Source: a virus (lineage: Duplodnaviria > Heunggongvirae > Uroviricota > Caudoviricetes). From it: a stretch of 64,000 nucleotides of DNA. Position numbers and translations under genes: made by a program. Positions within the stretch are counted from its first letter, which is position 1. Each line of letters starts with the position of its first letter. Of this stretch, positions 14,456 to 42,912 are shown piece after piece. Location: IMG/VR virus record IMGVR_UViG_2687453623_000004; one strand, given 5' to 3'. Below the pieces are notes generated by a model, which saw nothing but the letters and a program-made list of their open reading frames with translations, did not search any database and had not been told where the DNA came from.

Positions 14456-15026
14456 GCCATTACAACTCCCGCCACCGCTTGAGGGTGATATCAGTCTCAG
14501 GACGCTGGGAAGACTGGCAGGACGGCTGGATAACATCGACCTGAGCGTACTGATGGTCTTTCTCGTCGATATCGTCGACAGTTCCGCGCTGCCATGGCTG
14601 GGCGAGCAGTTCTCACTGTCTGGCGATGGCTGGGAGCTGGCGGAATCGGACGATGTTCGCCGCATGCTTATAAAAGCAGCCATCGAACTGCACCGGTATA
14701 AAGGGACGCCGTGGTCAATCCGGGAAGTTATCCGCCGTTTTGGCTTTGGTGAAGTGGATCTGATTGAAGGCACAGGTCGTCTCAGTTACGACGGCAATCG
14801 CAGCTATAACGGACTGTTTGTTCATGGAGATGCAGCCGCCTGGGCAGTTTATCGCGTTATTCTGAAACAGCCCATTACTAACGATCAGGCCGCGATGCTG
14901 CGTCAGACGCTGGCTGCATTTGCACCGGCCCGCTGCCATCTGGCCAGCCTGGAGTATCAGTCTGTGGCCATTCGCTATAACAATACCGCCATCCATGATG
15001 GCAGTTATAACCACGGGAGCAGTTGA
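14448..15026 (+). CDS. tail protein I-like (Mu gp48-like)
   Basis: 192-aa ORF overlapping J-like stop and fibre start; position equals P2 gpI. Confidence 0.55.
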   Translation: MTEPLQLPPPLEGDISLRTLGRLAGRLDNIDLSVLMVFLVDIVDSSALPWLGEQFSLSGDGWELAESDDVRRMLIKAAIELHRYKGTPWSIREVIRRFGFGEVDLIEGTGRLSYDGNRSYNGLFVHGDAAAWAVYRVILKQPITNDQAAMLRQTLAAFAPARCHLASLEYQSVAIRYNNTAIHDGSYNHGSS

Positions 15027-16276
15027 TTATGGGAAACCTGAATGAAACAGAAAAGTGGGAAGAAAATATCTATCAACTGGAGACATCAGATCCGGTTCTG
15101 GGTGGTGCAGACGGGATATCAAATCGAGCCCCCCGGCAACTGGCAAACAGGACGAAATGGCTGAAGAAGAAAACGGAGGAAGCCGCACAGTCACTGGCTG
15201 AACACGTACGTTCCCGTAACCACCCGGACGCGACACTGACAGCTAAGGGGTTCACCCAACTGAGCAGTGCCACCAACAGCACCTCTGAAACGCTGGCCGC
15301 CACACCAAAAGCGGTCAAGGCTGCATACGACCTGGCAGCCGGCAAGGCGCCTGCCAGCCACACTCACCCGTGGAGTCAGATAACGGGAGTGCCTGCGGCT
15401 TCACTGACGGCAAAAGGCACCGTACAACTGAGCAGCGCCACGGACAGTCAATCAGAAACTGAGGCTGCCACGCCGAAGGCGGTCAAGGCTGCATACGACC
15501 TTGCAGCCGGCAAGGCGCCCGTCAGCCACACTCACCCGTGGAGTCAGATAACGGGAGTGCCTGCTGCCTCGCTGACGGCAAAAGGCACCGTACAATTGAG
15601 CAGTGCCATCAACAGCACGTCTGAAATACTGGCCGCCACACCGAAAGCGGTCAAGGCTGCATACGATCTGGCAAACGGAAAACAACCGGCAGATGCCACG
15701 CTCACTGCTCTGGCAGGACTTGCCACTGCAGCAGATCGGTTGCCTTATTTTACCGGAGCAGACCGCGCAGAGCTGGCAACCCTTACAGCTATTGGTCGCG
15801 CTATTATCGCTAAGGGCAGTATAAAAGATGTCCTCAATTACCTTGGTTTGGGGGAAGGCTCGGCGCTGCCCGTTGGTGTACCTGTTCCGTGGCCCACTGC
15901 CACACCGCCAGCAGGCTGGTTAAAGTGCGACGGGCGCGCCTTTACAAAAGAACAATATCCTGTTCTGGCCAGAGTCTACCCGACCCTCCGTCTTCCCGAT
16001 TTACGCGGTGAGTTTATCCGTGGATGGGACGACGGGCGAAAAGTGGATACAGGGCGCGATCTGCTTTCACGGCAGGATGGTACAAGTTTTTCTCATTACG
16101 CAGGTAATTTTGACATTGGGTCTGGTCATTCAATCAATAACTATGACCAAATCGTTGACAACCAACCTGGATTCTCCCGTTTTTCATTTGCAGGTCCTTC
16201 GCGAGGCGATGGGGTTAATTATGTGACCATTCGTCCCCGTAACATTGCGTTTAATTACATCGTAAGGGCGGCATAG
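15023..16276 (+). CDS. tail fibre protein (constant region fused to variable cassette 1)
   Basis: 417-aa ORF; N-terminal collar motif ([23 protein letters not shown]…PKAVKAAYD) shared with P2 H at 39747..42371; three tandem ~56-aa repeats; C-terminus ends [11 protein letters not shown]. Confidence 0.8.
   Translation: MIMGNLNETEKWEENIYQLETSDPVLGGADGISNRAPRQLANRTKWLKKKTEEAAQSLAEHVRSRNHPDATLTAKGFTQLSSATNSTSETLAATPKAVKAAYDLAAGKAPASHTHPWSQITGVPAASLTAKGTVQLSSATDSQSETEAATPKAVKAAYDLAAGKAPVSHTHPWSQITGVPAASLTAKGTVQLSSAINSTSEILAATPKAVKAAYDLANGKQPADATLTALAGLATAADRLPYFTGADRAELATLTAIGRAIIAKGSIKDVLNYLGLGEGSALPVGVPVPWPTATPPAGWLKCDGRAFTKEQYPVLARVYPTLRLPDLRGEFIRGWDDGRKVDTGRDLLSRQDGTSFSHYAGNFDIGSGHSINNYDQIVDNQPGFSRFSFAGPSRGDGVNYVTIRPRNIAFNYIVRAA
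15236..15700. repeat. three tandem ~168-bp coding repeats inside the tail fibre gene
   Basis: Protein block LTAKG(F/T)(T/V)QLSSA…[12 protein letters not shown](A/N)GK… occurs three times consecutively; DNA copies start near 15236, 15404 and 15572. Confidence 0.8.
15831..15856. other. putative invertase crossover site 1 (gix/hix-like), at the constant/variable junction of the fibre gene
   Basis: Sequence …caattaccTTGGTTTgggggaagg…; homology with the inverted copy at 17874-17899 begins exactly here; central ACCTTGGTTT resembles the AAACCAAGGT core of hix-type sites as I recall them. Confidence 0.4.
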
Positions 16277-16294
16277 AAACGTTGGTTTGGGGGA
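16269..16294. other. putative invertase crossover site 2 (direct orientation)
   Basis: …tagaaacgTTGGTTTgggggaagg… immediately after the fibre stop codon; near-reverse-complement of site 3. Confidence 0.35.
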
Positions 16295-16748
16295 AGGCTC
16301 TGCATTGCCTGTTGGTGTACCGGTTCCATGGCCCACCGCCACACCGCCAGCAGGCTGGTTACAGTGCAACGGAGCTACGTTCACCAAAGAACAATATCCT
16401 GTTCTGGTCAGAGTCTACCCGACCCTCCGTCTTCCCGATTTGCGCGGTGAGTTTATCCGTGGATGGGACGGTGGTCGCAAGGTTGATACCGGGCGTGCGC
16501 TACTTTCATTTCAGGAAGGGACTATCGTATCCGGTTTTGATGATAATGATACCGGAGATATCAGTTCGCTCGGCTCTACACAATACGGATTTGGTGACGC
16601 TTTAACCTCTAATCAACTGGGGGTCTTAAATGGCAAAAAGTGGATATTTGATGCATCCTCTAAAGGTGCACAAAGATATGACTGGTGGGCTTATGTATCA
16701 GCTCGCCCCCGCAATATCGCATTTAACTATATCGTGAGGGCGGCGTGA
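16287..16748 (+). CDS. silent alternative tail-fibre C-terminal cassette (variable cassette 2; no ATG, no RBS)
   Basis: 153-aa frame starting at TTG; encodes (L)GEGSALPVGVPVPWPTATPPAGW…[11 protein letters not shown], a paralogue of the C-terminal ~140 aa of the expressed fibre. Confidence 0.5.
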   Translation: MGEGSALPVGVPVPWPTATPPAGWLQCNGATFTKEQYPVLVRVYPTLRLPDLRGEFIRGWDGGRKVDTGRALLSFQEGTIVSGFDDNDTGDISSLGSTQYGFGDALTSNQLGVLNGKKWIFDASSKGAQRYDWWAYVSARPRNIAFNYIVRAA

Positions 16749-16754
16749 TACCGT

Positions 16755-17369
16755 TCAGCCGGCAAGCGCCAGTGGCGCTTCCGGCCAGCTGATTTCAGGT
16801 GCCTTGCTGATATCCAGTGCGTTCAGCTCGTCGATATAATCCAGCACGGCGTTCAGTTTTGCCGTTTCTTCTGGTTTCAGACTGCGACCAGCACGCAGTT
16901 TGAGGTTGATAAGATCGACGGACGCCATCGCCTGTTTCACCCGTTGCTGGCGTTGCTGTCTGGCAACCTCCAGTTCTGCGGCTCGCTGCCGTTCAGTATC
17001 GGTTACCCACGCCTCACCGTTCCAGGTATCCCATGGCGTGGCTGGCTGTTTTGTGGTGGTGTCCGCCGGGTAATCACCCGGTTGGGTAATCAGAACGGGG
17101 TTACCGTTCTCCGTGCTGTATACCGTCTCGCCGCGGTGATCAGGCACATGCTCCCACCCGTTCAGCGTGGCAGTCCGGCAAACCACGTAACCCGAAATTG
17201 CTTCCGGCGGTGCATCGGCGCACGAATGTGCCGGAGTACCCACCCCAAGGGCGAGATACTCCACAGAGGATGAGGTGTATTCCCGGGTTTCCTCGTCATA
17301 GTGATATACAGTGATATCGCCCGCTACAGTGGCGATACCGTTTTCATCCAGAACTGCAGTGTTACTCAT
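16755..17369 (-). CDS. tail fibre assembly protein (Tfa, Mu U'-like)
   Basis: 204-aa ORF; C-terminus …ELNALDISKAPEISWPEAPLALAG typical of Tfa chaperones; start overlaps the stop of inverted cassette 3. Confidence 0.75.
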   Translation of the reverse strand: MSNTAVLDENGIATVAGDITVYHYDEETREYTSSSVEYLALGVGTPAHSCADAPPEAISGYVVCRTATLNGWEHVPDHRGETVYSTENGNPVLITQPGDYPADTTTKQPATPWDTWNGEAWVTDTERQRAAELEVARQQRQQRVKQAMASVDLINLKLRAGRSLKPEETAKLNAVLDYIDELNALDISKAPEISWPEAPLALAG

Positions 17370-17851
17370 TAAACTGCCCTCACAATGTAATTAAGTGCAA
17401 TGCTACGGGGTCTGACAGTGATACCCTTCGCATACCCGCTTCTGATAGAGGTCAGAATAGTAGCCTGCATACCATTGTCTGACATTGCCACGACAGGATC
17501 GCTGAATGTTGTCCCGTCCGGCATTTTAAAGCTGCCCTCACGAAGGTCTGTAATGGAATCTTCATTGTTGAATCCCATGCCGACTATCCCCGAGGTTCCC
17601 GTAGTGTCCTGGTTATAATAATCCAGCATTGCTGTTCTTAACAGCGTTGCCCCTTGTGCGGACAGCAACTTACGTCCTGTATCAACTTTGCGCCCGTCGT
17701 CCCATCCACGGATAAACTCACCGCGTAAATCGGGAAGACGGAGGGTCGGGTAGACTCTGGCCAGAACAGGATATTGTTCTTTTGTAAAGGCGCGCCCGTC
17801 GCACTTTAACCAGCCTGCTGGCGGTGTGGCGGTGGGCCACGGAACAGGCAC
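17369..17851 (-). CDS. alternative tail-fibre C-terminal cassette 3 (inverted, promoterless; Mu Sv'-like)
   Basis: 160-aa frame on minus strand with GTG as first codon; first ~64 aa nearly identical to cassette 1; upstream frame closed by TGA just beyond the crossover site. Confidence 0.6.
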   Translation of the reverse strand: MPVPWPTATPPAGWLKCDGRAFTKEQYPVLARVYPTLRLPDLRGEFIRGWDDGRKVDTGRKLLSAQGATLLRTAMLDYYNQDTTGTSGIVGMGFNNEDSITDLREGSFKMPDGTTFSDPVVAMSDNGMQATILTSIRSGYAKGITVRPRSIALNYIVRAV

Positions 17852-17886
17852 ACCAACGGGTAGCGCCGAGCCTTCTCCTAAACCAA
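17693..17886. repeat. inverted repeat (~194 bp) matching 15844-16037
   Basis: Reverse complement of 17693-17886 is almost identical to 15844-16037; delimits an invertible segment of ~2.0 kb. Confidence 0.85.
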
Positions 17887-17899
17887 CGTTTATCTCTCA
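17874..17899. other. putative invertase crossover site 3 (inverted orientation)
   Basis: …ccttctcctAAACCAAcgtttatctc…; boundary of the inverted repeat, ~55 bp upstream of the invertase gene. Confidence 0.4.
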
Positions 17900-17952
17900 A
17901 ATCCTCCCCACATTATCTCAGTACTTTAACCACTCAAAAGGGAGTATTTTTA

Positions 17953-18525
17953 ATGCTGATTGGCTACATACGTGTGTCAACAAATGACCAAAACACAGAT
18001 TTGCAACGCAATGCATTAATGTGCGCAGGATGTGAACAGATTTTTGAGGACAAAATGAGCGGAACCAAGTCGGAACGACCAGGCCTGAAACGCGCTTTAA
18101 AGTGCCTTAAAAGAGGGGATACATTGGTGGTCTGGAAGCTGGATCGGTTGGGTAGAAGAATGAAACACCTCATTGCTCTCACAGAAGAGCTACGCGCAAA
18201 AGGTGTCAATTTTCGCAGTCTGACGGATTCAATCGATACCAGCACTCCGATGGGAAGGTTCTTTTTTCATATGATGGGTGCACTGGCAGAAATGGAGCGT
18301 GAACTGATAGTTGAGCGCACGCTGGCTGGACTGGCTGCTGCGCGAGCACAAGGAAGAGTTGGAGGACGTCGCCCGAAACTGACGAAGGAGCAGCATGAGC
18401 AGATCGCAAGATTGCTCCAGAAAGGGTATGACAGAAAGCGGCTGGCAATTATCTATGATATTGGACTGTCAACGATCTACCGCTATCACCCTGTTGGGAC
18501 TGTCATAACGCAACCTGAAATGTAA
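17953..18525 (+). CDS. serine DNA invertase, Gin/Pin/Hin family
   Basis: 190 aa from ATG 17953 with RBS aaagggag upstream; MLIGYIRVSTNDQNTDLQRNAL… and C-terminal HTH (…YDIGLSTIYRYHP) closely match recalled Gin/Pin sequences. Confidence 0.85.
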   Translation: MLIGYIRVSTNDQNTDLQRNALMCAGCEQIFEDKMSGTKSERPGLKRALKCLKRGDTLVVWKLDRLGRRMKHLIALTEELRAKGVNFRSLTDSIDTSTPMGRFFFHMMGALAEMERELIVERTLAGLAAARAQGRVGGRRPKLTKEQHEQIARLLQKGYDRKRLAIIYDIGLSTIYRYHPVGTVITQPEM

Positions 18526-36580: not shown

Positions 36581-37105
36581 TTATTGCGGCATTTCTGGCC
36601 ATTCTATATCCGGAGCATTTTCCGGCTGAACGCGATTCAGTAGCACACGGTATTTTTTCCAGTGTGTCAGGCTTAACTTTTCTTCCTCGGTAGCCATATC
36701 TAAATCGACAGCATCCTGCAGAGTGCCAATAATTTCACCGGCATATGCAATCTGCTCTTTCTTCTGAGACTCCGCCGCTCTGACAAGTGCATCATGCTCT
36801 GCATTCTCATCATTCACCCACGCATTTCCGTTCCATTTCTGATAATCCCCATCCGGGGAAATGGCTGTCACGTCTGGAGGTAATGCACCAAGTTCAGAAA
36901 TATAAATGGCTGCTCCCGTTTTCGTTTCGTAGACAGTCTTTCCGCGATGATCTTCCATCAACTCCCATTTCATTTCATCTGCATTGAAAACGGCTGCATA
37001 ACCAGCAGGAATATCAGGTGGTGCAATATCTGTACTGTTTGCAGGCAGACCTGTATGCGGCGGAATATATGCATCACTTTCGCCAATAAACTCATTGGTT
37101 GCGTA
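36581..37105 (-). pseudogene. G: tail fibre assembly gene G, 3' fragment (175 codons, no start codon), separated from its 5' end by an IS element
   Basis: Frame open from TAA at 37106-37108 down to the stop at 36581; encodes …[57 protein letters not shown]…DIEWPEMPQ, the conserved Tfa body. Confidence 0.8.
37093..37099. repeat. 7-bp target-site duplication (CATTGGT), copy flanking the lower-coordinate IS end
   Basis: cattggt immediately precedes the IS terminus tgcgtatt… at 37100; identical heptamer follows the other terminus at 39681-39687. Confidence 0.7.
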
Positions 37106-37184
37106 TTACCGTGAAGGAGATCGGTGAGTAACATCGATGGAGATCGGTTCGTGTCACTTTCACAGAACCGTTTTTAAATTACCT

Positions 37185-37934
37185 TCACTGATCTCCTTCG
37201 GTCAACGGAGATTGTATTTTCCGCATTGATTCTCCTTTAAGTTCGATCTTGATACTGCCATGAACCAGTCGATCTAGGATGGCATCCGCATGTGTGGAGT
37301 CTCCGATCATTTTGTACCAGTTTTCCACCGGCAACTGGCTCACTACGATGATTGAGCCTCGTTGGTACATCAGATCCACTATTTCCAGCAGGTCGCTACG
37401 CTGTTCTGATGAGAGAGGTTCCAGCCCCCAGTCATCCAGAAGCAGCAGATCGCTATTATTCAGCCTGGTCAAAAGTTTGCTGTATCTTCCATCAGCATGC
37501 CCCTGATAGCACTGTTCCATCAGCGCTTTAAGGCGATAATAGTAGACCTTGTATCCCTGTCGGCAGGCATTATGACCAAGTGCACATGCCAGGAACGTTT
37601 TACCGCTGCCGGTGGCCCCGGTCAGTAAAATATTTTGTTTCAGGGTTAACCAGTTTCCCTGACTGAGTGAACGGATGAGGGCCCTGTCCAGCCCTCTATT
37701 GTTACGATAATCCAGCTTTGATAACTCAGCATTAAGTCTGAACCGTGCATGTTTGATCAGACGCTCTGCCTTCCTGTTTTCACGGCAGGTTAGTTCTTCT
37801 GCTGTCAGTAATGACAGGCGTTCTTCGAAGCCCAGCTCCTGGTATGTGCCCGGTTGAGCAAGTTGCTTTTTAAGCGCATCACGGAAGCCGGTGAGTTTAA
37901 GTGCGGTCAGTTGTTCGTAAAGATGATTCATCAT
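37185..37934 (-). CDS. istB: IS21-family transposition helper ATPase IstB
   Basis: 249-aa ORF with Walker A motif (LLTGATGSGKTFLACALG) and Walker B-like LLLLDDWG. Confidence 0.9.
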   Translation of the reverse strand: MMNHLYEQLTALKLTGFRDALKKQLAQPGTYQELGFEERLSLLTAEELTCRENRKAERLIKHARFRLNAELSKLDYRNNRGLDRALIRSLSQGNWLTLKQNILLTGATGSGKTFLACALGHNACRQGYKVYYYRLKALMEQCYQGHADGRYSKLLTRLNNSDLLLLDDWGLEPLSSEQRSDLLEIVDLMYQRGSIIVVSQLPVENWYKMIGDSTHADAILDRLVHGSIKIELKGESMRKIQSPLTEGDQ

Positions 37935-37945
37935 TGGATCCCGTA

Positions 37946-39487
37946 TCAGTGGTAATACTCACTGCCGCGTACGTTTTCGTGTTCCATCGTGGATAACAGA
38001 TCTGGTTTTGGATCCTGAACAGGTTGTTTATCCAGACCTTTTTCCAGGATCGATTTAATACCTGACAGACGCCATACCTTTGTTTTCAGAGCTCTTGCAC
38101 ATGCTGCATTAAGTCTGGCTTTACTGTATTTTTTATGAAGGTTCAGGAGTCCAAGGCAGAAGCGATAGCTTTGTTCCGGATGTGGACGAGAGTTCAGTAT
38201 ATGAAGCACATAACTATGAGTTTCACTGCCTATGTGCCCCGCCCATTCCAGAAGACGCTCTGGCGTCCAGGTGGCATGCTGTCGATGAGCTTCAGGCATG
38301 TGCTCGTTGCGGGTACTGTAGCCATAAGTACGCTTGCGCGGGTGCACAGCAACCTCCTGCCCCTGATTGAAGAGTCTTACCAGTTCTCCGGAGATCCATG
38401 CTTCCAGTTGCTGGCCTAACAGCGAACATGGAACCGAGTAGTAATGTTTGTCGATTTCCACGTGGTAATCGGCATGAACTCTGACTTTCTTCACCAGGGT
38501 GTAACTGTAACTGGCTTCAGGAAGAGGCTTCAGTGCGGGTTTATCAAGCTGGATGAAGAGTTCTGCACGTGAATAACCCAACTTCTGCATTATTTTGTTA
38601 TTCAGTCTTTCCAGCAACTCCCGAATGCGCTGATTAAGCGATGCAAGGCTGTAGAAGATCTCATGCCTGATTCGGGCCATGATCCAGCGTTCAACAACCT
38701 GAACGCCAACTTCAGCTTTGGCTTTATCTTTCGGTTTACGTGGCCGCGCAGGCAAAACTGCGACATTATAATGCTCAAGCATCTGCTGGTAGGTAGGGTT
38801 AACGTCAGGATCATACTTACATGCCCTGGATGTGGCGCTTTTCAGATTGTCCGGAACAACAAGTTCAGGAACGCCACCCAACCACTGGAAGCAGCGAACA
38901 TGACTCATCACCCAGTCTTCAAGCTGCTGAGACCAGGTGGCCTCTGCCCATGTGTAACTTGATGCCCCGAGAACAGCTACGATGACCTGAGCAGTTCTTA
39001 TTTCTCCGGTCTCAGGGTCGGTAACGCCAACGGTAGGTCCACAGTAATCAACGAAAAGTTTTTCGCCAGCTTTATGTACCTGACGCATTGATGGTGAAGT
39101 GGTTTTGAGCCATTCACGGTACATCCGGCAGTAATGGTTATAGCTGTAAAAACCGCCTGGATTACGCTCACAGTATTCTTCCCAGAGTAGCTGCAGCGTC
39201 ACGCATTTATTACGCAGTTCCCGGTGTACTGTAGCCCAGTCAGGCAGAGAGTGCTTCTTCATCTTAACCTGGGTCTGAAGGAACGCATGTTTTAGTTTTG
39301 TATCATCCCATCCTGTAGGTAAGGGCCACTGCTTTATGCCAAGTTGAGCCGCCCGATTAGCATATCTGGATACAACGGAAGGGGAGATTGCAAGACTACG
39401 ACCAATTTGTCGATGGCTGAGTCCAACACCGTATTTAAGCCTAAGAATTTCTTTAAGTTTTCTCATAGAAATTGGAACTGTTGGCAT
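37946..39487 (-). CDS. istA: IS21-family transposase IstA
   Basis: 513-aa ORF with N-terminal HTH (…LSHRQIGRSLAISPSVVSRY…) and DDE-type catalytic core; followed 12 nt later by istB. Confidence 0.9.
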   Translation of the reverse strand: MPTVPISMRKLKEILRLKYGVGLSHRQIGRSLAISPSVVSRYANRAAQLGIKQWPLPTGWDDTKLKHAFLQTQVKMKKHSLPDWATVHRELRNKCVTLQLLWEEYCERNPGGFYSYNHYCRMYREWLKTTSPSMRQVHKAGEKLFVDYCGPTVGVTDPETGEIRTAQVIVAVLGASSYTWAEATWSQQLEDWVMSHVRCFQWLGGVPELVVPDNLKSATSRACKYDPDVNPTYQQMLEHYNVAVLPARPRKPKDKAKAEVGVQVVERWIMARIRHEIFYSLASLNQRIRELLERLNNKIMQKLGYSRAELFIQLDKPALKPLPEASYSYTLVKKVRVHADYHVEIDKHYYSVPCSLLGQQLEAWISGELVRLFNQGQEVAVHPRKRTYGYSTRNEHMPEAHRQHATWTPERLLEWAGHIGSETHSYVLHILNSRPHPEQSYRFCLGLLNLHKKYSKARLNAACARALKTKVWRLSGIKSILEKGLDKQPVQDPKPDLLSTMEHENVRGSEYYH

Positions 39488-39680
39488 AGGTATCCTTTAC
39501 CGGAATGGCAAAAGATACAGATCAACACACCTGTGAAGTTCCAATAACATTGATGGAGATCACTGAATAACAAAATGAGTCAAAAGTGATCTCCATCGAT
39601 GTTATTCAGCGATCTGTTCAAATGTTATTACCCGATCTCGATGGAAGTTATTGAGTGATCTCCTTTCATGAAAATACGCA

Positions 39681-39747
39681 CATTGGTTCCATCAAGTAAA
39701 TTGAAAACGCGGATAGTTTGTGCTTCTGCACTCATTCTGAAAGCCAT
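39681..39747 (-). pseudogene. G: tail fibre assembly gene G, 5' fragment (first 22 codons)
   Basis: ATG at 39747-39745 overlapping the H stop; encodes [22 protein letters not shown], then runs into the IS terminus; joining it to the 3' fragment across the IS restores …[15 protein letters not shown]…. Confidence 0.75.
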
Positions 39748-42371
39748 TATGCAAGCCTCACAATATAGTTAAATGCGATGTTTTTGACGGTGTTTTCTGT
39801 ATTACCTGTAGCATTAACGGTAATAGAGTGCCCGTGTGAGCCAATAGCAACCGTGTGTGAATGTGCACCAATACCAACCGTATGATTATGTGCACCAATA
39901 TCTACCGTGTGGGCATGATTCCCGGCAGCTCCTGATGTGCCATTAAACGATGGGTTGTCAAAGCCTGTTTTACCGGTTTCACCATTAGTATTGGCATTCC
40001 CTCTGTAAATGGTATGTGTATGGTTACCAGTGGTATTAGTGGTTTTTGTTCCGTAGTTAAACGTACTGACTGTCTTCGTCCCGTAATCAAACGAACTGGT
40101 TGTTTTCGTTCCCAAATCCGTATTTGACGCACTGGCACTGTGAGTATGCGATTTAATCCCGTCCTGTTCCTGTGACAATACGGCACGCCCACTGGCGGGT
40201 TTGCCCTTGATTGTCCAGCCGCGCATATCAGGAATAACACCAGAAGGATAGGCTATAGCCAGTTTCGGATATGCTGCCTTATCAAACGTCTGCCCCTGCA
40301 TGATTGCATAGCCTGCAGGTGGTGTATCTGATGGCCACGGCAGCGGAACACCAGGCGGAAACGCTTCAATATTTGCCGAGCCGTCAAATTTTACGCCGTT
40401 AATTGTCCTTGCCGTTTTCAGCTTTGTTGCTGTAGCCGCATTGCCGGACAGTTCACCAGAAAGGCCTGCACTGAATGTCTGTTTTGCCTCCCATGTCTGG
40501 GCTTCGTCGATAATTGGTAGCCGACGAATATTGAAGCTACGCTCCCCAGGATTGCCATATAAGCGGACTGTAAAAAAACGATAGTTGGTTTTGTTTGAAG
40601 TGCTGCGCCATACCTGCATTGAACGGGCGACACCTCCGCCTTCACTGGGGCCAACAGTGATATTTATCAGGTTAGTATCAATGACGCCCCATTCCATCCC
40701 ATCGGGAATATTGGTCATATCTGAAAGCCTGACAGTTATCATGCTGCCCGGTATAAAGTCGTAGGTCTGCCAGTCCAGACTGGATAACCTGTCGGTAACA
40801 CCGCCGACACCTAATTTAGTGAGTAATGATTTTGAGTTGTATACTTCCGCCCATTCCCCCCAGTCAGTTTCACCGCTGGCGCGGGTTCGCTGAAATGTCC
40901 GGTTTTTATAGGCATCCGTTGCTGAAACAGTCGTATATGTCTGGATATACGATTCAATATCACAACGTTTTTTCACCTCAACTATTGAGCCAACAGCAAG
41001 ATCTTTAGAGTCGGTGACAGGTGCATTTGTGGCCTGTTTCGTGACGCTATAAATACCAGGCTTTAAAAGGTCATCAAGATCCCCTGAATAAGTCCATCCC
41101 GTGGACTGATACCCAACAGCAATCCAGTCCTCCCATTGTGGATTTTCTGCATCCCATGAGGCTGTCAGTCCGCGAATGTACATAGTCCCACTACGGGTGG
41201 TATAACGTTGCATCCTCCCATACAGACCGCCTTCAAAGACTTCCAGAATACCCTGTCCAAAACTCCCTTCCTCCGGGAAATGACGGTCAAATGAGGCTAT
41301 TGATGTACTGCTATTGCGCCATATTCCCAGGTGTTCCGCACCACCTAAAGAATTCAGGTCAATTGACGTGCTTAATGGGCGAGTCCCGCTTGTAATAGCT
41401 CTCCATGCACTCCATACAGGACTGACAGGGTTCCATTCTGCATCAAGCATCCGAATGTAAATATTACCGGTTCGGGTGGTGTAGCGTTGTGTGCAGTGAA
41501 AGCGACCAGCATTGAATACTTCCAGAACCCCATTGCCTTTATCTTCAGGGTAACCAGACTCTGGTTTTGCAGTGGATTGTGACGGACATGACCACGTTCC
41601 AAGATATTTTTCTTCTGGGCCATAGGAATCAAGATTGTCAGTGGTTGGAATCATTCCATTGTGTTTCATAAACGTCAGGCTGGTAACGCCAATATTGTCC
41701 AGAAAAGCGCCCTTATCTGGAATATCGCCACCGTTCTGGTCTTTCTGCAGACGTTTCTCAGCATTGTCATAGGCTGCTTTTACTGCCTTTGGCGTTGCTG
41801 CCAGCTTTTCACTGGTGCTGTTTGTTGCACTGCTTAACTGAGTAAAACCTTTTTCTGTCAGCGTGGCGTCAGGATGGCGGCGGGACTGCTCATGCTCTGC
41901 GATTTTGTCATCGACGTAATCCTGCGTCGCCATCACTGTGCTGGCATCAATACTCAGCTCAACAGACGCCACGTTACTGACAATAATGACCATGCGGCAG
42001 GTCTGCGCACGCCCGGAGCCTTCAGCCAGTTCAGGCTTATAGCTTTCTGCCATGTTAGCGACCGCAATCAGTGTTCCGGCATCATCATACAGACCAAGTT
42101 CACGCATCCAGAAGCCGCCCACTTCTGGCGGTACAACCAGTTCAGCCACGATATAGTTTTTATTCTTGTTATCCACGCTGACTTTATTCAGAGCGTGACG
42201 CCAGACCTCATGCACCAGTTTCGTCTGACCGGCATCCGGCACCGGCAATTTGCCATTACCGTCACCCACGGCCATTGCAGACAGGTTTACTTTTTTCCCG
42301 CCGGGGACAGTGGCGGCTGCCAGCTTTGCGGCTCCGGCAGTAGTGATAACGGTTTTAAATTTCGTGCTCAT
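39747..42371 (-). CDS. H: tail fibre protein H
   Basis: 874-aa [66 protein letters not shown]… (P2 H-like N-terminus) with His-rich C-terminal repeats ending [11 protein letters not shown]. Confidence 0.9.
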
Positions 42372-42381
42372 TGTTTCTCAC

Positions 42382-42912
42382 TTATCCGGGATAAACAGTA
42401 ATAACATCACCATCACAGACCACACCGCCTGTATACAGATAGCCGGGAATGTCCTGGATAATGTTCAGACCGATAAGGTGGCGACTTGCGGGTTTGGCAT
42501 CGGCAATCAGCCGTTCCATTTCCAGATACATCTCCTCCGTGATGCCGCTTTCCAGTACGCCGATATCAAGGCGGAAGGTTCCTGGCGGGTCGTTTGTCTC
42601 CCACCATTCCTTTACGTTAATGAGATAGCCGAGCGGCTCCACCACACGCCGGATTGCGCCGACAGTGCCTTTATGACAATGAATGAAATAGGCATCGCGG
42701 ATAACGGCGCGTTTTGTCGCTTCCGGCCACTTTTCATCCCAGCGGTCAACCGAAAATGACCACGCCAGCCACGGCAGTAGATTTGCCGGGCAGGTGTCCG
42801 GGTTCCACAGCTCACGAATACTGACCGGCGTTTTTTCAATTTCCGCACAGGCTTTTGCGGCGGCGACTTCAAGCGGTGATGAGCCAGTCGGCAGCAGTCG
42901 CGAATCACTCAT
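42382..42912 (-). CDS. I: baseplate/tail protein I
   Basis: 176-aa ORF matching P2 gpI. Confidence 0.85.
   Translation of the reverse strand: MSDSRLLPTGSSPLEVAAAKACAEIEKTPVSIRELWNPDTCPANLLPWLAWSFSVDRWDEKWPEATKRAVIRDAYFIHCHKGTVGAIRRVVEPLGYLINVKEWWETNDPPGTFRLDIGVLESGITEEMYLEMERLIADAKPASRHLIGLNIIQDIPGYLYTGGVVCDGDVITVYPG

Follow-up and report, generated by a model that had tools for sequence, protein, structure and literature searches.

We analysed the tail-fibre module of a 64,000-nt stretch of DNA from a virus of the Caudoviricetes (IMG/VR record IMGVR_UViG_2687453623_000004), called the window in what follows. This module very probably is a multiple-inversion system of the Din family (Gin/Cin/Pin/Hin type), located at the right end of a BcepMu-like prophage of Escherichia coli sequence type 131 (ST131), Phi2 of strain EC958. 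A serine invertase would recombine any two of three 26-bp crossover sites that lie in inverted orientation, which would give four interconvertible isomers, A to D (permitted steps A to B, A to D, B to C and C to D, each reversible). The constant 5' part of the fibre gene (Sc) would thereby be fused in frame to cassette 1 (Sv1, isomers A and D), cassette 3 (Sv3, isomer B) or cassette 2 (Sv2, isomer C). The predicted outcome is one promoter and three alternative receptor-binding tips. Deletion between the directly repeated sites 1 and 2 would be suppressed by the topology of the invertasome, judging from general knowledge of Gin and Hin. All four isomers are present as exact loci in complete genomes, and the internal site 2 is in use in nature.

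Isomers in natural genomes and the adjacent invertase

Many complete genomes of E. coli ST131, JJ1886 and O25b:H4 among them, carry the module with 100% identity. We built the isomers in silico by cutting each of the three sites at its central TT, which yields two pieces, X (15844-16282, cassette 1) and Y (16283-17885, cassette 2 followed by the fibre assembly gene tfa and cassette 3, both inverted). Seven loci fetched from other genomes correspond to predicted isomers with zero mismatches (3601/3601 nt), and all four isomers are represented among them (Table 1). In addition, the isomer differs within series of isolates: U14A has A and both U13A and U15A have D, while 4/4 has A, 4/1-1 has B and 4/0 has a D-like arrangement. 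The possibility raised in the original prediction that only one configuration would ever be detected is thus not borne out.

Table 1. Isomers of the fibre module, with a prime for pieces in inverted orientation
Isomer	Order of pieces	Cassette fused to Sc	Length of fusion (residues)	Tfa downstream of expressed fibre	Exact 3601-nt loci
A (window)	X Y	cassette 1	417	no	JJ1886
B	Y' X'	cassette 3	445	yes	4/1-1
C	Y X'	cassette 2	428	no	AR_0055, 18044
D	X Y'	cassette 1	417	yes	U13A, U15A, S65EC

With junction-spanning queries, we looked for each junction in 5,426 complete genomes of E. coli. A genome was counted if at least 80% of the query was found in one place; by design, an isomer that does not match reaches a query coverage below 70%, and the matches listed all have 100% identity and 100% coverage. 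The junctions of Sc with Sv1, Sv3 and Sv2 occur in 156, 327 and 201 genomes, respectively, and those of the end of Sv1 with Sv3 and with Sv2 in 185 and 204. The Sc-Sv2 and Sv1-end-Sv3 junctions can be produced solely via site 2, and isomers C and D, which also depend on it, exist as exact loci. Thus, the internal site is used in nature, and the start-less cassette 2 gets fused in frame to Sc. This agrees with the original prediction, according to which cassette 2 can be expressed only after rearrangement. The in silico fusions of Sc to the three cassettes are all in frame and intact, and each fused protein has exact matches on about 1000 or more public contigs (at least 1000 for Sc-Sv2).

The invertase gene lies directly to the right of the segment. 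Its product matches the Pfam families Resolvase (8e-51) and HTH_7 (1e-12), and residues 1-181 align with the structures of Mu Gin (4M6F and 3UJ3; 314 bits, E 2e-93 to 1e-92) at 75-78% identity. The catalytic serine motif MLIGYIRVSTNDQ is conserved in this alignment. A resolvase domain, a serine at position ~9-10 and a C-terminal helix-turn-helix place the protein among the small serine recombinases of the Din family. At the DNA level, the gene shares 75% identity with Mu gin over its first 388 bp. Its similarity to Gin and its position suggest that this adjacent invertase is the catalyst of the rearrangements. In Din-family systems, a recombinational enhancer (sis) bound by Fis is present in cis, inside the 5' part of the invertase gene. 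By analogy with the known behaviour of Gin and Hin, inversion in Phi2 would also depend on Fis and an enhancer.

Solving the junction counts gives ~135 genomes with isomer A, ~69 with B, ~164 with C and ~21 with D out of ~389, as a rough estimate only. The right-junction query (299 genomes) counts A plus C, as the pieces get joined across the 439-bp cassette. Several points weigh against our reading of the module. The junction counts are not independent events since ST131 is clonal, and they are inflated by related prophages that share the 3' end of Sc and the Sv3-Tfa pair. The left junctions add up to 684 and the middle ones to 389, and inter-prophage rearrangements also disturb the estimate of isomers. 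In ~295 genomes, the left junction is present without an Sv1-containing middle junction; phage 503046 and P2-like prophages sharing the 3' end of Sc account for at least some of these. The Fis enhancer was not pinpointed, no analysis of Fis sites having been made. Other Din invertases of the same genome could act in trans (as Forde 2014, PMC4134206, argued for Phi4). The remaining points concern the assembly of the fibres and are taken up below with the Tfa gene.

Crossover sites, genes and neighbouring prophages

Each cassette opens with one 26-bp site of the Gin/Hin type (Table 2). These sites consist of two imperfect 12-bp half-sites, GGTTT(G/A)GG(G/A)GAA, around a 2-bp core, and have inverted partners, as is characteristic of the Din family. 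Mu gix, TTATCCAAAACC TC GGTTTACAGGAA, has the same half-site architecture. The three gix/hix-like junctions of the original prediction are indeed present. As all three sites have the same asymmetric core, TT, any inverted pair is compatible. The cassette-side half-site GGTTTRGGRGAA has exactly 3 copies in the 64 kb, against 0.94 expected. The three sites define two overlapping invertible segments of about 2042 and 1603 bp.

Each site is followed by ~230 bp of collar-domain coding sequence, which is 94% identical between Sv1 and Sv3 and 85-86% identical between Sv2 and the others. The outer inverted repeat spans 229 nt at 94% identity. From 15843, its arms match over 196 bp with 5 mismatches, 140 bp of them perfect, in agreement with the near-identical repeats of 194 bp that had been proposed. 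The first 244 nt of cassette 1 are repeated at 85% in cassette 2, the direct paralogue of the original prediction.

Every element of that prediction was confirmed at its position: the fusion of the constant region to cassette 1, the direct cassette 2 and the inverted Tfa gene and cassette 3. Pfam searches assigned a Collar domain (PF07484) to each cassette and Caudo_TAP to the Tfa gene, while a search of NCBIfam returned no specific family for Tfa or the fibre. The exact 415-residue fibre product is found in public collections. The stop codon of Sv1, TAG (16274-16276), falls within crossover site 2, and Sv2 starts seven bases past it. Sv2 contains no in-frame ATG; its only start is a mechanical TTG at 16287, without a Shine-Dalgarno sequence. 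Thus cassette 2 lacks both a start codon and a ribosome-binding site, as had been claimed.

Table 2. Coordinates of the features of the fibre module in the window
Feature	Position	Strand	Remarks
Tail-fibre open reading frame (ORF; constant part and cassette 1)	15023/15029-16276	+	Phage_fiber_2 x3; Collar domain at the C-terminus
Constant 5' part (Sc) of the tail-fibre gene	15029-15842	+	ATG at 15029; mechanical TTG start at 15023; three Phage_fiber_2
Crossover site 1	15831-15856	+	TCCTCAATTACC TT GGTTTGGGGGAA; in frame across ...NYLGLGE...; equals the Phi2 site of Forde 2014, Table 3
Cassette 1 (Sv1)	15843-16276	+	Collar domain and 71-residue distal domain; expressed in the window arrangement
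Crossover site 2 (internal)	16270-16295	+	GGCATAGAAACG TT GGTTTGGGGGAA; direct with site 1
Cassette 2 (Sv2)	16283-16748	+	Start-less, intact; collar domain
Tfa assembly gene	16755-17369	-	204 residues; Caudo_TAP; own GAGG Shine-Dalgarno; overlaps the stop of cassette 3 (TAATG)
Cassette 3 (Sv3)	17369-17886	-	Inverted; collar domain
Crossover site 3 (inverted)	17873-17898	-	Reverse complement GAGAGATAAACG TT GGTTTAGGAGAA; in Forde 2014, Table 3
Gin-like serine DNA invertase	17953-18525	+	190 residues; catalytic Ser9; Resolvase and HTH_7

The region 15023-18525 forms the right end of the Mu/BcepMu-like prophage. Upstream of it are the baseplate genes V, W, J and I. The invertase gene is the final prophage gene ahead of aroA, which together with serC lies directly downstream. 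The Phage_fiber_2 repeats of Sc are encoded by three tandem 168-bp repeats (15234-15737), the second and third copies of which are 83% and 65% identical to the first. A longer constant part (545-residue fibre) is seen in the relative from phage 503046, indicating that the number of repeats varies among relatives.

The window also contains a second, P2-like tail module on the minus strand (36581-42912), which codes for gpI, an 874-residue collar-type fibre and a truncated-looking Tfa of 130 residues. An IS21-family element (37185-39487; istA-like protein of 513 residues and IstB of 249 residues) is inserted between that fibre gene and its Tfa gene. We found no crossover-like sites in this P2-like module. 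The window is identical to JJ1886 (100%) from 1 to 27810; beyond that point the arrangement differs, with a P2-like prophage in reverse orientation, so that the strain of origin is not JJ1886.

In strain 4/0 (NZ_CP023849.1, 998496-1007215 and 952000-1001900), an inversion of ~44 kb joins the Phi2 module to the fibre module of a neighbouring P2-like prophage. The result is a 570-residue hybrid fibre, in which a P2-type N-terminus and constant part are joined at TCCTCAATTACCTTGGTTTGGGGGAA to cassette 2 of Phi2. Two invertase genes flank three orphan cassettes and a Tfa gene whose product has 200 of 204 residues identical to the Tfa of Phi2. The flanks of the exchange are near-identical, so that site-specific and homologous routes both fit.

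At most of the annotated ST131 loci that we examined, the Prokaryotic Genome Annotation Pipeline (PGAP) splits the expressed fibre gene into two or three entries, which are fragments or pseudogenes (labelled 'incomplete; partial in the middle of a contig'), and calls the start-less cassettes free-standing 'phage tail protein' genes. These isomer-dependent calls are a systematic artefact for invertible fibre genes. The practical value of recognizing the module lies in annotation and assembly, as its isomers can pass for strain differences or 'translocations'. The hundreds of complete genomes of this pandemic clone also constitute a natural, well-populated dataset for a three-tip fibre switch.

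A single Tfa gene, three tips and the alternatives

As noted in the original prediction, no Tfa gene follows the expressed fibre in the orientation of the window. Only isomers B, with Sv3, and D, with Sv1, place the single Tfa gene after the expressed fibre. In isomer D it is read through the silent Sv3 fragment, and it has a ribosome-binding site of its own. It is antisense in isomers A and C, so that Sv2 never has a Tfa in cis. BcepMu-like and P2-like prophages alike keep this one-Tfa asymmetry.

In their distal domains, the three cassettes have diverged or show no relationship to one another, but all of them end in RPR(N/S)IA(F/L)NYIVRA. The N-terminal domain of Tfa reportedly binds the C-terminus of the fibre. 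In three P2-like phages, collar cassettes with the same ending are each followed by a gene for a Tfa of ~200 residues, 51-60% identical to the Tfa of Phi2. 500465-2 and SKA5 have Tfa proteins with 95% identity, and the fibres encoded before them share, beyond the collar, just their last ~14 residues. These comparisons suggest that one Tfa may serve all three cassettes, probably via the common motif, a proposal that we hold to be about evenly balanced. In isomers A and C, another source of Tfa would be required, such as a near-identical gene in a co-resident P2-like prophage, or Tfa would be dispensable. The co-resident P2-like prophage of strain 4/0 carries such a gene (200/204 identical residues), and supply in trans is conceivable on the basis of this similarity. 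More tentatively, some collar-type tips may fold without a Tfa in cis, or resident prophages may share chaperones and cassettes as an inter-prophage pool; we regard this as possible rather than likely. The ~44-kb inversion of strain 4/0, by which a P2-like fibre gene is joined to cassette 2 of Phi2, hints at such sharing.

If only the Tfa-linked states were meaningful, isomers A and C would give misfolded fibres, and the module would be an ON/OFF switch of infectivity with a stored spare cassette. We consider this unlikely. It would fit the co-orientation of Tfa with the fibre in B and D only. Two further observations are in its favour and count at the same time against the Tfa part of our own reading. 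First, a scan for sigma-70-like promoters inside the segment found none able to express Tfa in A or C, which is a weak negative. Second, the closest phage protein with an Sv1-type distal domain, gp22 of 500465-2 (63% identical), is followed by its own Tfa, and therefore Sv1 is probably not Tfa-independent. However, a Tfa-less place for one or two intact cassettes is kept in Phi2 of ST131, in the P2-like prophage of E. coli E2348/69 and in phage 503046. Such conservation in three diverged modules would be unexpected if the Tfa-less cassettes were never productive. Moreover, the near-identical Tfa of strain 4/0 could act in trans in such states. If cassettes 1 and 2 are functional in isomers A and C, this would imply either Tfa-independent folding or the supply of Tfa or cassettes by other resident prophages. 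How one orientation-dependent Tfa supports three tips bears on the engineering of host range in phages and tailocins.

It is very improbable that RecA-dependent homologous recombination between the collar repeats (~230 bp, 85-94% identical), rather than exchange at the 26-bp sites, produces the isomers. The repeats are long enough for RecA, and the ~44-kb inversion of strain 4/0 could equally be homologous. However, the isomers obtained by cutting at the TT core are reproduced without mismatch in seven independent genomes. The sites are polymorphic 5 nt right of the core and, on its left side, at a distance of 1-6 nt, which leaves an interval of 7-12 bp for every exchange: TTGGTTT for sites 1 and 3 and AAACGTTGGTTT for sites 2 and 3. 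Homologous exchange would scatter along 230 bp. Thus, the exact matches and the site differences flanking the core argue for a site-specific exchange. A Gin homologue furthermore adjoins the segment, and frequent switching within a culture was seen in EC958 (Forde 2014).

There is next to no chance that the module is a classic two-state switch like the G segment, using only the outer sites 1 and 3, with cassette 2 and site 2 as a dead duplication remnant: the missing start codon and ribosome-binding site of cassette 2 and the description of no more than the 2067-bp outer inversion at this locus (Forde 2014) would agree with it, but it is refuted, unless the assemblies are artefactual, by the site-2-dependent junctions and the exact isomer C and D loci, as well as by the three-site design kept at about 75% DNA identity in E2348/69, where four variants were validated by polymerase chain reaction (PCR). 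Nor is cassette 2 a decayed, frameshifted remnant, the other outcome that would have spoken against the original prediction: it is intact and in frame once fused.

Comparison with known invertible systems

The multiple-inversion module analysed here is the Phi2 locus of EC958. In Forde 2014, its outer sites are tabulated together with an inverted repeat of 227 bp and an invertible segment of 2067 bp, all of which match ours, and PacBio reads of one EC958 culture showed both orientations of the segment. The EC958 reference corresponds to isomer B. In contrast to our description, that account is of a two-site, mirror-image switch; it mentions neither an internal third site and middle cassette nor the existence of four isomers and of one Tfa only. 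A preprint on ST131 'Bone' isolates describes a 'translocation' altering the fibre of a Burkho_phiE255-like prophage, which probably reflects the same rearrangements.

A close precedent is a P2-like prophage of E2348/69. Goldberg 2014 (PMC4272514) reported a locus with three inverted repeats, of which four variants and three C-termini were PCR-validated; we fetched it by the coordinates of their supplement (NC_011601.1, 1891695-1893703). The order is the same as in Phi2: H with cassette 1 comes first, followed by a second cassette that is direct and start-less; next are Tfa and a third cassette, both inverted, and then the invertase. There are likewise three sites, two direct and one inverted, of the design NNNNNNNNNACS TT GGTTTGGGGGAA, and the inversions are of similar sizes (2008 and 1576 bp). 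Cassette 1 and the invertase are each 86% identical to those of Phi2, and the 203-residue Tfa is 59% identical. The E2348/69 locus differs in its P2-like rather than BcepMu-like backbone, in the unrelated distal domains of cassettes 2 and 3 and in a DNA identity of about 70-76%. With more than two sites, overlapping segments, three fibre 3' ends and a module that is syntenic and homologous to that of E2348/69, Phi2 belongs to the multiple-inversion systems.

The Mu G segment with Gin, like the P1 C segment with Cin and the e14 P segment with Pin, fuses a constant 5' fibre part to alternative 3' parts, as is the case here. Mu and Phi2 also share 26-bp sites with a 2-bp core and an invertase gene directly right of the segment, at the end of the prophage. 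However, the Mu segment has only two sites and two states and is symmetric (Sv-U / U'-Sv'), each variant having its own Tfa, whereas Phi2, with its three sites and four states, has a single Tfa alongside three cassettes. Comparison with the Mu layout thus sets the Phi2 module apart from the symmetric two-cassette type.

The Min system of p15B resembles Phi2 in its Din-family serine invertase, more than two crossover sites, overlapping segments and shuffled tail-fibre 3' ends. It reportedly has six sites and many more isomers and resides on a P1-like plasmid prophage. Another P1-like phage, vB_EcoM-673R5 (ON470615.2, 60606-71655), has a Min/C-segment-like region in which four or more collar cassettes lie; one has 72.5% identity to Sv1. 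The region adjoins a Gin-like invertase annotated as split (Hin1/Hin2); the sequence appears frameshifted, and the cassette structure is uncertain.

The R64 shufflon (Rci, pilV) is similar in that multi-site inversion swaps the C-terminal segments of one adhesin-like gene. It differs by its tyrosine recombinase Rci, its 19-bp sfx repeats and its conjugative pilus gene, where Phi2 has a serine invertase and a fibre gene. The original prediction favoured a multi-site shufflon over a two-state switch. The multi-site part stands, with four isomers found, but the Phi2 recombinase is a Gin-like serine invertase devoid of a tyrosine-recombinase domain. The locus is thus analogous to a shufflon and not a member of that class; its proper counterparts are p15B Min and the three-repeat locus of E2348/69.

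Phage 503046 (CP025887.1) is a two-cassette relative with an Sc-Sv3-Tfa arrangement, an inverted Tfa-less cassette (63% identical to Sv2) and a near-identical invertase. As it also has a single Tfa, the asymmetry is not peculiar to the three-cassette version. In contrast, two Tfa genes in a symmetric arrangement are found in the classic P2-like phages 500465-1, 500465-2 and SKA5. Two other candidates, 'PhiKM', a broken short-read assembly, and 'Entero_P88...(23)', a prophage-prediction fragment, were uninformative on architecture and were set aside.

Finally, the design as such is not new, since both the outer flipping of this locus and the architecture have been published. What our analysis adds is the activity of the internal site in nature. 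Beyond this, the interest of the locus lies in its single-Tfa design, shared with E2348/69 and phage 503046, and in the signs of cassette exchange between prophages.

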